From a virus (Duplodnaviria; Heunggongvirae; Uroviricota; Caudoviricetes), in IMG/VR virus record IMGVR_UViG_3300029461_000057: a stretch of 5,974 bases of DNA. One strand, given 5' to 3'. Each line of letters begins with the position of its first letter. Position 1 is the stretch's first letter. This document shows, one piece after another, positions 1-5,974 of this stretch. The notes under the pieces are model-generated. The model saw only the letters and a list, made by a program, of their open reading frames with translations, had not been told where the DNA came from and made no database searches. The position numbers and the translations under genes are program-made.

Positions 1-290
1 CTTTACAGTTAAATCATTTCTTATGCCTTAGTTTCTGATAAAAAAGGTTTTTTTTCACGATTTATAAGTATCAGGTTATGTGAACCGTTCTGAATGTGTA
101 AAAAACGACTGAAAGAAAAGCGGTGGTCCAGACGCCGACAAAAGCACGAACTCGCAAACAAACGCCAAAGTTGGCAATGGCACGCGCTTTTCACGAAAAG
201 AACACCCCGAGATATTGCGTTCGCTGGTGGGAAAACATTCCTGACCCACCTGAAGGCGCAATACATCAGGTTTTAAGCAGAGGAAAGACT

Positions 291-968
291 ATGAATAACA
301 TGACAACGAAAGAGCTTTTGACGGCACTTCCAAAATACAAAAGCCATAAAACAGTTCGCGCCTCAAAAATCAAAGATATCGAAATTATCGCCCTAATGGA
401 TGTGGTCCTTTTTTGCAACATCGAAGTCGTTGAGCCAGAAGGGGTAAAAGTCCATGTTGATAAAATATTTTTGCAAAAACACCGACCAGAAATTGGCGGA
501 TATCTGGTCGCTTATGAGGACGGATCTCTGTCCTATTCACCAGAAAAAACATTTGAAGAAGGCTTTAGTCGGACTAACGACTTCTTCGAAAATGGGGTAT
601 CGCTCAGCATTGAAGGTCACAATGGGGTGACATTCATTACAGCCAGGGACGTAACTATTTCTGCTGGCGGTATCGCTACTCTACAAGAAGAAATCGACCT
701 TGAAGCAGCCGACTTTTCTGACGCGCTGATGTGGCTGAAGGATGGCAAGAAAGTTGCCCGACGCGGGTGGAACGGCGAAAACCAATTCTGCTGGCTGGTT
801 CCTGAAGGACAGTACCCGGCACGAATGGAAGCCATTAAGGGATATTTCCCCGGCGACCTCGTTCCGTATGGTGCTTATTTCGCCTTAAAAAATGCACAAG
901 GTGTAGTTGTTCCGTGGGTTCCTTCTGTAGGCGACTTACTGGCATGTGACTGGTTTGTAGTGGAGTAA
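291..968 (+). CDS. Two-domain hypothetical protein; C-terminal ~80 aa resemble a DUF2829 (Tad2-like) domain, N-terminal ~140 aa unassigned
   Basis: The open frame runs from GTG 123, but ATG 291 is preferred because AGGAAAG (281-287) sits 3-6 nt upstream as a Shine-Dalgarno. Stop TAA at 966-968. C-terminal motifs DALMWLKDGKKVARRGWNG ... PWVPSVGDLLACDWFVV match my recollection of the DUF2829 signature (AL..LK.GKKV.R.GW ... D.LA.DW). Family assignment is from memory, not a search. Confidence 0.75.
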   Translation: MNNMTTKELLTALPKYKSHKTVRASKIKDIEIIALMDVVLFCNIEVVEPEGVKVHVDKIFLQKHRPEIGGYLVAYEDGSLSYSPEKTFEEGFSRTNDFFENGVSLSIEGHNGVTFITARDVTISAGGIATLQEEIDLEAADFSDALMWLKDGKKVARRGWNGENQFCWLVPEGQYPARMEAIKGYFPGDLVPYGAYFALKNAQGVVVPWVPSVGDLLACDWFVVE

Positions 969-974
969 TTTAAC

Positions 975-1757
975 GTGAAAAATACTAAAGCAATTCAATA
1001 CCGCCTGCGTAATGGTCAGAGTGTCGAAGTGACCATCAATAATGATGGTGTGCCTGGCGAAAAGGTTTCGATCTCTGAACTGGCTATCGAAAAAACCATC
1101 ATGTGCCACCTTGGCTTTACTGAAGAAGTGAGCAAAAAGCATGGTGTAGCAATCTGGAGCGCAATGGATACTGGTATGCGCAGATTCATTACTGCTCGTA
1201 CCCCAGGGATGACCATGATGGACCTCATGCAGATTGCGCCGCTGTTTGAATGTGAGCCTTTAGATGTATTCAGCAATCCAGCTATCTGCCAGCAGCTATA
1301 TGGTGAGATGAAACTCGCGGTTACCCCCATTGTGCTGCATGAAGGATCGCTTGCTGGCGTGTGGAAAGTGGAGCGTATTTCAAGCTACATGCCTTTCCAT
1401 GTCAACGGCGTAATCACTGGTGAAAATCAACCTGTTTCCGTTATAAAGTCAGACCTCAAGCGCGCAATTCTTGAAGCAAGTTGTCGAGTTGTCGGCCTGG
1501 GCAAACAGTCTTATGTTTCCTTCCCGGCTGGCCCTGAAGGCCCGGCAGAAATTCTGATTATGGATGCCGATCTGCTCTGGCAAATACAGTTTCTGATTGG
1601 CAAAAGCATCATCCGCGCTGAAGAACTCGATCAGTACATTACCTGCACGATGACGGATGAAGTCAAAAGTGTGGCTATAGCCAATGCCCGGAACCTATGT
1701 CGTGCTGCATTAACAGAACTGCAAGAAAACACCACGGAAGAAGTGGAAAGCGATTAA
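975..1757 (+). CDS. Hypothetical protein (260 aa), no recognisable motif; likely co-transcribed with the upstream gene
   Basis: GTG start at 975 lies 6 nt after the upstream stop, with GGAG (962-965) 9 nt upstream. Uninterrupted 260-codon frame ending TAA 1755-1757, immediately followed by the terminator hairpin. The only antisense ORF (1016..1330) is short and lacks a plausible RBS. Confidence 0.7.
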   Translation: MKNTKAIQYRLRNGQSVEVTINNDGVPGEKVSISELAIEKTIMCHLGFTEEVSKKHGVAIWSAMDTGMRRFITARTPGMTMMDLMQIAPLFECEPLDVFSNPAICQQLYGEMKLAVTPIVLHEGSLAGVWKVERISSYMPFHVNGVITGENQPVSVIKSDLKRAILEASCRVVGLGKQSYVSFPAGPEGPAEILIMDADLLWQIQFLIGKSIIRAEELDQYITCTMTDEVKSVAIANARNLCRAALTELQENTTEEVESD

Positions 1758-1787
1758 AAAAAATCCCGCCGACTGGCGGGATTTCTT
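1756..1787. terminator. Bidirectional rho-independent terminator between convergent operons
   Basis: Perfect 10-bp inverted repeat AAATCCCGCC (1761-1770) / GGCGGGATTT (1775-1784) with 4-nt loop GACT. On the minus-strand transcript the hairpin is followed by an 8-U run (complement of A 1756-1763). On the plus strand it is followed by TTTCTT. It sits exactly between the stop codons at 1755-1757 (+) and 1787-1789 (-). Confidence 0.85.
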
Positions 1788-2098
1788 CAATATACGATCT
1801 GGTCTACATGATCACCAAAATCATCGTCGTCGTCGTCCTCATCGCCACCATCTACTGCTGGCCAATCAACAAACCAGCCAGCGTAAAGATGCAGCGTTCG
1901 GAGAACATCACTTGCGGGAGCATCAAGGGTGTTAACGAATCCCATATAGCTATTGGGATTTGCCCCAGCTATGGCTTCAGCGATCATGTCCTCGGTAATG
2001 TCACCGGAGATAATGCTTAAACGCCCGGAAACTTCTTCATTATCATCAAATTCGATAATGGCATCTCCACCTAATGGCGCTGCGATTTTAATCTGCAT
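1787..2098 (-). CDS. Small highly acidic protein (103 aa) with C-terminal poly-Asp tail; translationally coupled to the upstream large gene
   Basis: ATG at 2096-2098 (minus) is preceded by AAGGAG (complement of 2106-2111) with 7-nt spacing. The start overlaps the last 8 nt of the 995-aa ORF. Stop TGA (1787-1789) abuts the terminator. The protein ends ...DGGDEDDDDDDFGDHVDQIVY. Confidence 0.75.
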   Translation of the reverse strand: MQIKIAAPLGGDAIIEFDDNEEVSGRLSIISGDITEDMIAEAIAGANPNSYMGFVNTLDAPASDVLRTLHLYAGWFVDWPAVDGGDEDDDDDDFGDHVDQIVY

Positions 2099-5075
2099 TA
2101 TTTAGCTCCTTTGCCACACCTAATAACAGTTCCAGCAATCCGTCACCATTCATCAGTGATGCGGCAGCGGCCTCTTTGTCATGATACAACTGAAGAGCCA
2201 TAGAGAATACTTCCGTTGCTGACGTTTTGGAAATAGTCGGTGATTTCTGCCGAATTTTCCCGGTGTTACTTACTGAGGCTGGCGGGTATACCTTCGCCAT
2301 ATAAATATTACTCAATCGAGATCTGAAGCACCATTCAGGCTTGCCACGCCCACCGATATTGACGAAAGATGGCTTATCCCCTTCAACATTGGCCTTCAGG
2401 AATGACCGGGCTTTCTCTAACAAACCAGGGTTACTGTACTCAAGATGATGACCCAGCTCGTGCCACAGTGCACTTGCATTTTCATCGTTCAAATTGACAG
2501 CAACAACACCATTAAGATTTGCATATGCCCTTCCCTGGTGGTGAACTACCTTTGATAAGGTCGATATTTTCCCGCCGGTCAGGCGATAAATATCAGCAAG
2601 TTCCTTGCGCAGGTCTATCCCACCATTCTGTCCAGCGCGGGCTTCTTCCACTTCTTCTGTGATAAAAGAGTCGGCCCACTCAAGAGCTTTTTCTTCAGAT
2701 ACGGATGAGTTTGCGATCGCACTGTTCATGGCAGATAACACTTTCTCGTGGACCGAACCCATACTTCGCTGATTCATTTGCCAGCGTATCTGCGGGTTAT
2801 ATGAGAATCGCTTAAGTAGTTGGTCAAGCTGCTCAAGTTCTTCTTCACTGACATACTTTTTAGCCTCACCAATAATGCCAGGGAGAATATTGCCGTTAGG
2901 ATTAAACGCTCGCGAAAGGAAGAGTTTCAGCGCCCCCATGCCCTCCGATGCTTCAATATCACCAATAACCCGGTTAACAATGGCCGCACTCTTCGGATTA
3001 GCATCCGCCAACGCTCTGGCTACGATTTGCAGGGACGATACGACCTCACGCTGCATATCCGTCCTGATCTCATCAATAAACTCTGGCGTTATGCCGTGCT
3101 CTTTAAGGATATCCCTGCCTTCCGCCGTTACCCCATCGATATCACCGACATGTTTATTAACCCGACTTTGCAATGCCTTAAATGCCTTCAGAATTCCACG
3201 GGCATCATCCGCTTTACTAACGGCCTTCCTGAATGCTGGCAAGAAGTCTGAGTTAACCTCATTTTGTTGATCGGCCCACTGAATGGAGGCTTCTTTCATC
3301 TCGTCCAGAGTCAGATCACCCAACGCGGTATGGTCTGTGAATATGAGCGACAACCTCTGAATCATTTCTGCCAATGGTGATGCCGAATGCGCCGCGCTAA
3401 GGAATGCTTTCACCCTGGTTGGGCGAATGGAAAACCAGTCAATAGCTGGTGGCATATCTCCGTTTTTTATCGCCTGCGCTATCTCATCAAAGCCGTCGCG
3501 CCCAAGGGAGGATGCGTGATTTAACAATCCGCGAAGTAACGAATTGCTGATACCGAATAATCGGCACCATTTATTCACGTCGGCAACAGGCATTCGAACA
3601 AAATGCGCAAGCACTTGTACAAGCTGTTCATCCTGGGGATCTGTACGGGAAAGCAGCCTGATCAGATGAATAATGTCTTTGATGCCGGATGCCCGATGTA
3701 ATAGCAAGCTGGTATATGGAGCAACACCGTTGTAACTACCGCCGGAAACGGACTCGAAAAGACCGCCGGATATCCCTTGCATGCCTTCGTTTTCCAGTTC
3801 CTGAGACACCTGGCGAAGGATATCCTGTAACGACACATCACCACCGCCAAACATATCCCCCAGCGCCTGGCCCTGGTGCTGTAACTCATCATTGATACGT
3901 TGAGCCATCAATTTAAAGGCGGTGGCCATACGCTTCGCGCTACGGTTATTCGCGACGATGAACAACGCGAGTGCTTTCACTTCCGGGGCCGTTTCGCTGA
4001 ACATATCCCCCTGAGCAATAACATCGGTAATATGCTGGCCTGACTCCTTCGATTGCCTTACCAGGTCTACCGCATCTTTCAATGCCGCCAGCGCCTTTTT
4101 ATCGAGGCTATCCGCTGTCTCAATGCCATCAACAATAGTTGTCACAGCCTGCTTGTGCGCTTCTCCTGATAAAGCCTGCATCTGGACAAAATCATTGGCT
4201 GCCGCATTAAGCGCCGTCAGAACATTACGCATATCCGGATCAGGTTCTTCTGCAACCATCCTTACCAGGCGCGCATCCTTATATGCCTTGGCAAAGATCG
4301 CGTTTTGTATACGGTCTACAAGTTGCCGTGTTGGTCGCCCATCTTCAGTTACAAGGCCAGCCGCCTGTGTGGCACCAACTTGCGTCATAAATCCGCGAAT
4401 AAACGCGTCATTACTGCGGCTAAGCAGATCTCCACTTTCTGACGGGTTAAACAACGCCATCATCGCCGGTGTTATGCTGTCGGCATCAACAAAAGCCTTT
4501 TCACTGGCTGCCATTTCCTGGAGATCAGAAATATTTGAGTCCTTGGCAAACTGAACACGGTCAACCTTAGTTAACCGGCGGCGCACCAGTACCGGAGCCG
4601 TCATTGATTCAACCTTTTCAGGAGGTATGCCGAATTCGGTCGCATGTTCAATCAGGTACTCACGATACCGATCCGCATTGCCGTCCTGATAGGCTTTGAT
4701 GATCCCCATGGTCCGTCCATTACCTGACTCAACGGCATTGTCCTCACCAATTATCGGCGCGCCATGGCTGGATAAACCGGAATCAGTAAGCTGAGCAGGC
4801 CGCAAATCTTTGGATATCTGGTTAACCTGAAGAAGGCTGGATGCGCGGGTCCGGTCGCGCGGTTGAAGTTCCTGGGGATAGTCAGGATTAATTTTCCCAT
4901 CCAGAGTATTGGATACCAAAAGAGCTGAGGCATCGACGATATCAAACGCTGTTTTTACCTCGTCTCCCTTCGCTGTCACCACATACGAAACCCGCCCATA
5001 ATCGGGCAGGTTCTTTAGCAGCTCGATCAGCGTTTCTATGCTGGTGGCCATTACCACCTGATCGCTTAAGCTCAT
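2088..5075 (-). CDS. Large multidomain protein (995 aa): N-terminal ParB/sulfiredoxin-like region plus C-terminal HExxH zincin-like metallopeptidase motif; polyvalent-protein-like architecture
   Basis: Single uninterrupted 2988-nt frame with coding-like composition; every overlapping opposite-strand ORF is under 150 aa. Residues ~60-130 read INPDYPQELQPRDRTRASS ... GAPIIGEDNAVESGNGRTMGIIKAY, which parallels the ParB N-domain pattern (P.QPR ... PI.V ... GERR.RA). HELGHH is encoded at 2445-2462 (minus) in the context NASALWHELGHHLEY. The start is ATG 5073-5075, with Met9 at 5049-5051 as an alternative; neither has a strong SD. Confidence 0.9.
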   Translation of the reverse strand: MSLSDQVVMATSIETLIELLKNLPDYGRVSYVVTAKGDEVKTAFDIVDASALLVSNTLDGKINPDYPQELQPRDRTRASSLLQVNQISKDLRPAQLTDSGLSSHGAPIIGEDNAVESGNGRTMGIIKAYQDGNADRYREYLIEHATEFGIPPEKVESMTAPVLVRRRLTKVDRVQFAKDSNISDLQEMAASEKAFVDADSITPAMMALFNPSESGDLLSRSNDAFIRGFMTQVGATQAAGLVTEDGRPTRQLVDRIQNAIFAKAYKDARLVRMVAEEPDPDMRNVLTALNAAANDFVQMQALSGEAHKQAVTTIVDGIETADSLDKKALAALKDAVDLVRQSKESGQHITDVIAQGDMFSETAPEVKALALFIVANNRSAKRMATAFKLMAQRINDELQHQGQALGDMFGGGDVSLQDILRQVSQELENEGMQGISGGLFESVSGGSYNGVAPYTSLLLHRASGIKDIIHLIRLLSRTDPQDEQLVQVLAHFVRMPVADVNKWCRLFGISNSLLRGLLNHASSLGRDGFDEIAQAIKNGDMPPAIDWFSIRPTRVKAFLSAAHSASPLAEMIQRLSLIFTDHTALGDLTLDEMKEASIQWADQQNEVNSDFLPAFRKAVSKADDARGILKAFKALQSRVNKHVGDIDGVTAEGRDILKEHGITPEFIDEIRTDMQREVVSSLQIVARALADANPKSAAIVNRVIGDIEASEGMGALKLFLSRAFNPNGNILPGIIGEAKKYVSEEELEQLDQLLKRFSYNPQIRWQMNQRSMGSVHEKVLSAMNSAIANSSVSEEKALEWADSFITEEVEEARAGQNGGIDLRKELADIYRLTGGKISTLSKVVHHQGRAYANLNGVVAVNLNDENASALWHELGHHLEYSNPGLLEKARSFLKANVEGDKPSFVNIGGRGKPEWCFRSRLSNIYMAKVYPPASVSNTGKIRQKSPTISKTSATEVFSMALQLYHDKEAAAASLMNGDGLLELLLGVAKELNNAD

Positions 5076-5102
5076 CCCTGTTACGCCTTATCCAATGTGC
5101 CG

Positions 5103-5126
5103 CCCCCTACGCTCCTCATAGTGGGG
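5103..5126 (+). other. Candidate imperfect hairpin (7-bp stem with one bulged T, 9-nt loop); possible IS200/IS605 left-end subterminal hairpin
   Basis: CCCCCTA (5103-5109) pairs with TAG(T)GGGG (5119-5126) if T5122 is extrahelical; loop CGCTCCTCA. It lies ~50 nt upstream of the tnpB start, where left-end hairpins of this IS family sit. Weak, judged by eye. Confidence 0.25.
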
Positions 5127-5174
5127 ATATAAGGCACAGTTTTCCTCCCGGCTATTTTTGCTTAAAATAGTGAC

Positions 5175-5974
5175 ATGAAACAACAGGTGTCATTCAAATT
5201 CCGGTTAAAACCAGATGGTCAACAGGAGCGTCAAATGAGGCGCTTTGCCGGAGCTTGTCGTTTCGTTTTCAACCGTGCTCTGGCGCTTCAGAATGAGAAT
5301 CATGAGGCCGGTAAAAAATACATCCCTTACACGAAAATGGCTTCCTGGTTGGTTGAGTGGAAAAAAGACACTGAAACCGAATGGCTTAAAGATTCTCCCT
5401 CACAGCCATTGCAACAGTCACTGAAAGACCTTGAGCGGGCTTACAAAAACTTCTTCCAGAATCGGGCAGCTTTTCCCCGATTCAAAAAGCGGGGACAGAA
5501 TGATGCATTCCGCTACCCGCAGGGTGTTAAGCTCGATCAGGAAAACAGCCGTATTTTTCTGCCGAAACTTGGCTGGATGCGCTACCGGAATAGCCGTCAG
5601 GTCACGGGTATTGTGAAAAATGTTACTGTCAGCCAGTCCTGCGGTAAGTGGTACATCAGTATTCAGACAGAAAGAGAGGTATCCACTCCTGTTCACCCTT
5701 CAGCATCAATGGTCGGACTGGATGCTGGCGTGGCTAAACTCGCCACGCTGTCAGATGGCACAGTCTTTGAACCTGTAAATAGTTTTCAGAAAAACCAGAA
5801 GAAGCTGGCGAGACTTCAGCGACAGTTAAGCCGCAAGGTCAAATTCAGCAACAACTGGCAGAAGCAGAAACGCAAAATACAGCGACTGCATTCCCGTATC
5901 GCAAATATCCGCAGGGACTACCTTCACAAAGTCACAACGACCGTCAGCAAAAACCACGCAATGATTGTCATTGA
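5175..5974 (+). CDS. tnpB: IS200/IS605-family TnpB (RNA-guided endonuclease / OrfB), 5' portion; continues past the window end
   Basis: ATG at 5175-5177 opens a frame that runs to the window edge (266 codons, no stop). Translation MKQQVSFKFRLKPDGQQERQMRRFAGACRFVFNRAL ... MVGLDAGVAKLATLSDG is typical of the TnpB N-terminal region, and GLDAG (5715-5729) is the RuvC-I motif with the catalytic Asp. It is missing from the supplied ORF track only because it has no stop inside the window. Confidence 0.9.
   Translation, partial: MKQQVSFKFRLKPDGQQERQMRRFAGACRFVFNRALALQNENHEAGKKYIPYTKMASWLVEWKKDTETEWLKDSPSQPLQQSLKDLERAYKNFFQNRAAFPRFKKRGQNDAFRYPQGVKLDQENSRIFLPKLGWMRYRNSRQVTGIVKNVTVSQSCGKWYISIQTEREVSTPVHPSASMVGLDAGVAKLATLSDGTVFEPVNSFQKNQKKLARLQRQLSRKVKFSNNWQKQKRKIQRLHSRIANIRRDYLHKVTTTVSKNHAMIVI

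Follow-up and report, generated by a model that had tools for sequence, protein, structure and literature searches.

The 225-aa protein encoded at positions 291-968 (+) of the window, which is the whole 5,974-nucleotide stretch that was analysed, is probably a modular counter-defence protein of P1/D6-type phage-plasmids. It would combine a C-terminal Tad2 sponge with an N-terminal OB barrel that serves in assembly and an intervening linker that acts as a spacer. The coding sequence is complete (225 codons and a stop) and comprises an OB-type β-barrel (aa ~10-97; 318-581, +), a variable linker (aa 98-136; 582-698, +) and a Tad2 (PF11195/DUF2829) sponge domain, provisionally of the ModTad2 type (aa 137-225; 699-965, +). 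A sequence-only reading of this DNA had proposed a C-terminal Tad2/DUF2829 domain with an additional region fused at its N-terminus; an HMM match, a structural match and conserved pocket residues bear this out. The N-terminal ~140 residues, which had been taken for one unassigned domain, are instead a Dec-family OB barrel followed by the linker. The Tad2 half of the protein is ordinary; it is the OB domain that offers an interesting lead.

The window comes from a P1-like phage-plasmid. Positions 85-5974 are 99% identical to Salmonella phage SJ46, and piecewise identity to P1 is 97-98%. The last three codons of a P1-type ssb (EPF*) end at position 93, with stops interrupting the frame upstream, and are followed by a conserved leader of 197 nt (94-290, +) ahead of the Tad2-like gene. 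Downstream of the latter lies an isaA homologue (975-1757, +) whose 260-aa product matches phrog_2326 and has no Pfam or NCBIfam match; none of the four window proteins matched NCBIfam. An hxr homologue encoding an Xre-like putative repressor (1787-2098, -) is convergent with the isaA homologue. It is followed by ddrB (2088-5075, -), a gene of the P1 Dar anti-restriction system according to the P1 annotation, the 995-aa product of which contains the ddrB-ParB domain (Pfam PF18763, E 1.9e-39). DdrB is a head protein that helps incorporate DarB (PMC9024508). A 143-aa ORF (4123-4554, +) lies antisense within ddrB, and its start matches that of the annotated iddB of P1. The right part of the window contains an IS605-family tnpB/insQ (~5092-5974, +; CDS from ~5175 and continuing past the right end) with matches to the Pfam families HTH_OrfB_IS605 and OrfB_IS605. 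This element separates ddrB from ddrA. SJ46 and RCS47 carry it and P1 lacks it, and tnpB/insQ-like sequence also occurs in Morganella phage IME1369_01 and filamentous phage If1.

The suggestion that the locus is a counter-defence island holds in part. The Dar gene ddrB is indeed adjacent, but it belongs to a separate, convergent transcription unit, and in the closest plasmid the genes upstream are defence genes. Window bases 1-84 match neither SJ46 nor P1. Their match is to E. coli plasmid pKBN10P04869B, in which Avs4 and a gene of the AbiGi family are located immediately upstream of the matching stretch. A defence-gene island seems to have replaced ssb in the IMGVR element, adjoining the counter-defence gene.

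The Tad2-like gene starts with the ATG at 291, is preceded by a Shine-Dalgarno sequence (GAGGAAAG, 280-287) and extends over 225 codons to the TAA at 966-968. PHROG phrog_872 (function unknown) matches the full length of the protein (E 1.8e-59), the cluster of 100%-identical proteins (453 member sequences) has a length of 225 aa, and distant homologues begin at the same methionine. The SJ46 annotation gives a 281-aa ORF from GTG 123, in which the leader forms a 56-codon extension of the DUF2829 gene, and the P1 annotation (NC_005856 21569-21736) reads the same leader as the IsaA N-terminus. The GTG-123 start was rejected since in D6-type plasmids with dut a stop codon lies in frame 45 nt ahead of the ATG, since in this D6-type context, where dut ends just upstream, DNA homology to the window starts only at 270, and since all three differences between the leader and P1 affect the first or second codon position in the GTG-123 frame. 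The leader is probably untranslated, and P1 IsaA likely starts at an internal ATG (MTAQNTK...). Apparently non-coding, the 197 nt are nevertheless 97-98% conserved. In the leader, a simple promoter/terminator scan detected neither a promoter-like site nor a plus-strand terminator-like one, and Rfam yielded no matches.

In P1, which lacks the Tad2-like gene, the leader passes directly into the start codon of isaA. The Tad2-like gene is therefore a presence/absence cassette, the left boundary of which coincides exactly with its start codon. Inside the linker, at window position 646, there is a mosaic breakpoint with phage D6. The gene is thus both accessory and mosaic. The isaA homologue begins 6 nt past the Tad2-like gene, and the two are paired in both P1-type and D6-type contexts; the isaA homologue is probably co-transcribed with its neighbour and, by position, is a candidate for a related role. 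The Tad2-like gene follows ssb in the P1/SJ46 layout and dut in the D6 layout, and P1-type ssb promoters overlap a C1 operator. From these neighbouring genes we infer early expression, though in the window itself the P1-type ssb is replaced upstream of position 85. A comparable arrangement is the anti-signalling hotspot of N4-like phages, which is linked to SSB and primase.

The PF11195 HMM matches aa 141-224 over profile positions 2-73 of 73 with 80.2 bits (cut-off 25) and E 1.6e-22, and a structure-based search also led to Tad2. The domain has the Tad2 fold, namely an N-terminal helix and then an antiparallel sheet with an insertion. As reported for HgmTad2, W21-N22-G23 touch the diphosphate and ribose of gcADPR, while W87, L88, S90, T92 and D93 make ribose hydroxyl and adenine contacts (10.1101/2023.11.15.567273). 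In the alignment, the counterpart of the first group is W160-N161-G162 (768-776, +) and that of the second is W209-V-P-S212-V-G214-D215 (915-935, +). Six of the seven HgmTad2 residues of the ADPR-signal pocket are matched (W160, N161, G162, W209, S212, D215); T92 is replaced by G214, a point against the main reading. Across 35 homologues, the pocket residues are mostly invariant: W160, W209 and D215 do not vary, and P211 and S212 are nearly invariant.

The insertion between the core strands (aa 171-190; 801-860, +) is hypervariable, with a mean identity of 0.29-0.32 and 23-39% gaps, against 0.98 for the tetramerisation helix α1, and it has three allelic forms in the homologue alignment. The equivalent insertion forms a second pocket, which accommodates cyclic dinucleotides in HgmTad2 and cUMP in ModTad2. 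The hypervariable insertion thus offers natural allelic series for studying ligand-specificity switching. One allelic subgroup of alignment A1 (P0021, P0028, P0031, P0036, P0046, P0050, P0051, P0053 and P0055) has R-E-W-K-G in place of R-G-W-N-G, which amounts to the changes N161K and G159E within the motif of the ADPR pocket. Its insertion is also much shorter, and these features suggest a changed or lost ligand specificity.

The closest PDB matches are ModTad2 from a Myroides odoratus prophage (9EIB, 8V3E; 74.9 bits), HgmTad2/AcrIIA7 (8KBI; 42.8 bits, E 4e-10) and SPO1 Tad2 (8SME; 38.8 bits, E 7e-9). The alignment with ModTad2 has 44.9% identity, a single 1-residue gap and the same extended insertion after β2, whereas the insertion of HgmTad2 is longer and binds cGG and cGAMP, and that of SPO1 Tad2 is shorter. 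Membership in the ModTad2 clade is provisional, as judged from pairwise similarity rather than from a tree. ModTad2 is a single-domain protein of 89 aa, to which the 225-aa protein adds 136 N-terminal residues, and it binds both His-ADPR and cyclic pyrimidine mononucleotides. Within the Tad2 family, sequence does not reveal ligand specificity, since homologues inhibit Thoeris I, II and IV, CBASS and Pycsar in differing combinations.

The Tad2 domain (aa 137-225) most likely forms the usual Tad2 homotetramer. The tetramer would sequester TIR-derived ADP-ribose-type alarm molecules in the pocket made up of GWNG and W-x-P-S-x-x-D, and through this capture of the signal the Thoeris effector would never be switched on. 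As ModTad2 is the closest characterised homologue, the best guess for the ligand would be His-ADPR of type II Thoeris. The insertion, being of ModTad2 length, may make a second pocket for cyclic mono- or dinucleotides, which are Pycsar or CBASS signals.

The OB barrel (aa ~10-97) is homologous to phage L Dec and belongs to the same family as Dec and the N-terminal domain of RyR Tad (gp68 of Pectobacterium phage vB_PatP_CB1). The family has two signature motifs, Y-K-x-H-K-x-V-R-A-x-K-I and K-H-x-P-x-x-G-G-Y-L-V-x-Y-E-D-G-x-L-S-Y-S-P-x-x-x-F-E-x-G, both of which are common to gp68_N and the 225-aa protein. About 20 residues of the domain are nearly invariant, and many of them are polar (H19, K20, H64, D77, S81, S83, E89). 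An HMM built from 148 OB sequences gave 28.6 bits with gp68_N (E 7e-11 in a single comparison) and 26.9 bits with Dec, and had no match to LockinA or MoTad2; a smaller OB profile aligned with gp68_N in hhalign at E 1e-4, with a probability of only 58%. Dec (PDB 6E3C), the only relative by sequence with a solved structure, differs from the family in lacking most of the nearly invariant polar residues (H64, the Y-E-D-G-Y turn and S-x-S-P). Dec is a structural protein that is made late and forms trimers on the capsid; the Tad2-like gene, in contrast, occurs in contexts of early type and joins its OB domain to an intracellular sponge.

The linker is predicted with pLDDT <50 and aligns with the Dec stalk, the profile alignment reaching Dec residue 130; in homologues, this region is absent or swapped for other β-rich or helical segments. 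A Pfam EF-P OB match at aa 133-163 was disregarded as weak (E 0.16) and falling in the linker/helix region. The N-terminal domain had been suspected to be Lockin, as the sponge survey excluded '6E3C' along with Sequestin; an hhalign probability of 0.4% and an hmmsearch score of -0.7 bits speak against this identity, which is also contradicted by INPHARED, where Lockin is reported absent and the OB domain is present.

The OB family has thousands of members (2,642 representatives), has no Pfam entry and commonly occurs in stand-alone forms of ~85-125 aa. Protein P0126 (2,604 aa), with eight OB 'matches', was left out; it is an Ig-repeat adhesin (Big_13/Big_6) and was taken as a repeat-driven false positive. 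Two proteins of the Sequestin table (Tal et al. 2025; Pseudomonas and Stenotrophomonas rows) bear an N-terminal OB-like piece of ~45 aa, G-Y-x-V-x-Y-E-D-G-Y-x-S-W-S-P-K-D-x-F-E-x-A-Y, which fits only the β-hairpin-plus-helix half of the OB HMM (32-33 bits). This half of the domain may be a separable mini-module.

The partners of the OB domain were counted among the 148 best OB representatives, for Pfam-detectable domains only. They are Sequestin (PF21825, seven members), Tad2 (PF11195, six), Acb4 (PF13876, four) and the Acb2/Tad1 hairpin (PF24729, one), all of them families of immune-signal sponges; the remaining Pfam matches in this set, to HA1 and DUF7130, are weak and single-member. Together with Lockin and RyR Tad, the sponge families found fused to the OB domain, which precedes them, number six and comprise all the major ones. 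Lockin appears in an OB-Acb4-Lockin triple fusion in the published Lockin homologue table, the OB part of which is 36% identical to that of the 225-aa protein (E 7e-15). Close relatives from enterobacterial phage-plasmids include an OB-Tad2-Sequestin protein (P0062) and a Tad2-Sequestin protein (P0061).

The sequence-only reading had considered the fusion architecture unusual, and in this it was mistaken. Tad2 is often joined to other sponge domains, and sponge-sponge fusions such as Acb4-Tad2 (Pasteurella phage Pm86) and Tad2-Sequestin are established (Tal et al. 2025). The gene itself is carried by 193 PLSDB plasmids at a coverage of at least 80%, under the PGAP name 'DUF2829 domain-containing protein', and in a published survey DefenseFinder detected 'Tad2 AcrIIA7' in 56% of the phage-plasmids of the P1 group and 93% of those of the D6 group (10.1101/2025.09.12.675607). 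In the known Tad2 fusions, as here, Tad2 is linked to a second small phage domain. In the sponge-sponge fusions, including Acb4-Sequestin of phage Ab09, the partner is a sponge, whereas in the 225-aa protein it is an OB barrel and not a proven sponge.

The OB barrel most likely provides self-association or assembly and would not be needed for ligand capture, the linker being a variable spacer. The assembly role is favoured on account of the RyR Tad data, as gp68_N forms a domain-swapped dimer in the crystal. RyR Tad and the 225-aa protein share the placement of an OB-family domain N-terminal to a sponge, which in gp68 is a gcADPR sponge. In the RyR Tad study, gp68_N by itself did not act against type I Thoeris, and the sponge domain worked without it. 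The two proteins differ in that gp68_N is shortened and lacks the middle strands, and in that the gp68 sponge is RyR-Repeat12-like and not Tad2. A point against the assembly role is that some 20 nearly invariant residues seem to exceed the apparent need of a spacer or dimerisation function.

These residues, mostly lost in Dec, speak for a rival reading of the protein as a two-headed inhibitor, with the OB domain itself binding a signal as a sponge or modifying it, and one protein thus directed against two immune signals. Such a protein would parallel Acb4-Tad2 and Tad2-Sequestin, and the same 'guilt by fusion' logic uncovered Sequestin; the range of sponge families joined to the OB domain points the same way, as do the stand-alone forms, which are of typical sponge size. 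Published searches, moreover, would have missed such a family. The discovery of Sequestin relied on a fusion search restricted to Pfam families, and the structure-guided pipeline dropped candidates with an HHpred match to a protein of known function (Tal et al. 2025); a family with no Pfam entry and an HHpred match to Dec would escape both screens. The inactivity of gp68_N alone against type I Thoeris argues to the contrary, though it concerns a shortened variant and one system only, and the OB domain, with a net charge of about -2 as counted from sequence, has no obvious positive pocket. Owing to the strong polar conservation and the exclusive association with sponges, a second ligand-binding module, one of the options raised by the sequence-only reading, or a signal-modifying one keeps a minor share of the probability. 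We regard the two-signal inhibitor as rather unlikely, and it is comparably doubtful that the Dec-family OB barrel by itself represents an anti-defence module, widespread but overlooked, be it a novel sponge or a domain that modifies signals.

The 6E3C-like partner has not gone unnoticed: a published functional survey of Tad2 deliberately left out proteins with a 6E3C-like domain. The literature search found no description of this partner, and 6E3C occurred together with a sponge only in one Methods line. The 225-aa protein was not found in the supplementary tables of the sponge survey, which are possibly incomplete.

Much less probable is a virion function, in which the Dec-like OB domain and stalk would bind the capsid as trimers and show the Tad2-like domain on the particle for adhesion or stabilisation. 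Checks in phages GP4, Dolphis and P1 did not support it. The 3.7 Å capsid of GP4 holds only gp2 and the Ig-like gp1, and no OB protein gp05; the 'capsid decoration' gene of Dolphis, the sole gene so annotated, lies among small early-type genes; and P1 virions have no decoration protein, while P1, without the Tad2-like gene, builds the same capsid. The gene is located beside ssb or dut, outside the late head module. The polar signature of the OB family is missing from Dec, the linker is variable or absent among homologues, and every recognisable OB partner is an intracellular sponge; a trimeric stalk would also clash with Tad2 tetramers. In Ralstonia phage GP4 (L005), the stand-alone OB gene gp05 (3986-4485) is situated between the portal and major head genes and adjoins a CsrA-like regulator gene; it looks like a moron-type insertion in the structural module.

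An AcrIIA7-type anti-CRISPR function, with the DUF2829 domain inhibiting Cas9 and not signalling immunity, can practically be set aside: HgmTad2 was first reported under the name AcrIIA7, which survives in the DefenseFinder label, but in later work neither HgmTad2 nor other homologues reproducibly inhibited Cas9, whether in vitro or in vivo, and type II-A CRISPR systems are not typically found in E. coli or Salmonella.

In E. coli, Salmonella and Shigella, many P1/D6 phage-plasmids thus encode what is probably an inhibitor of signalling immunity. This is relevant to the spread of these elements between hosts, as some of them carry resistance or toxin genes. The 225-aa gene also offers an entry point to a large, unnamed, sponge-associated OB family related to Dec. 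The function of the OB domain, once worked out, would either bring to light a novel counter-defence activity or explain the assembly or regulation of sponge proteins, and would also tie a structural phage protein evolutionarily to the immune-evasion toolkit.

Rearranged forms of the gene occur among the homologues. In P0056 (241 aa, 15 member sequences), an in-frame deletion joins dUTPase to ...AGGITTQQEEID-Tad2, with loss of the OB domain, and P0023 (306 aa) has a tail-fibre N-terminus (Phage_fiber_2 repeat) joined on within the OB domain, near residue 23. The Tad2 module is intact in both proteins. A fold search of BFVD found Tad2-like domains with a MazG pyrophosphatase as fusion partner in Vibrio phage KF6 and with a putative thymidylate kinase in Erwinia phage RisingSun; these enzymes are, besides dUTPase, further nucleotide-metabolism partners of Tad2.
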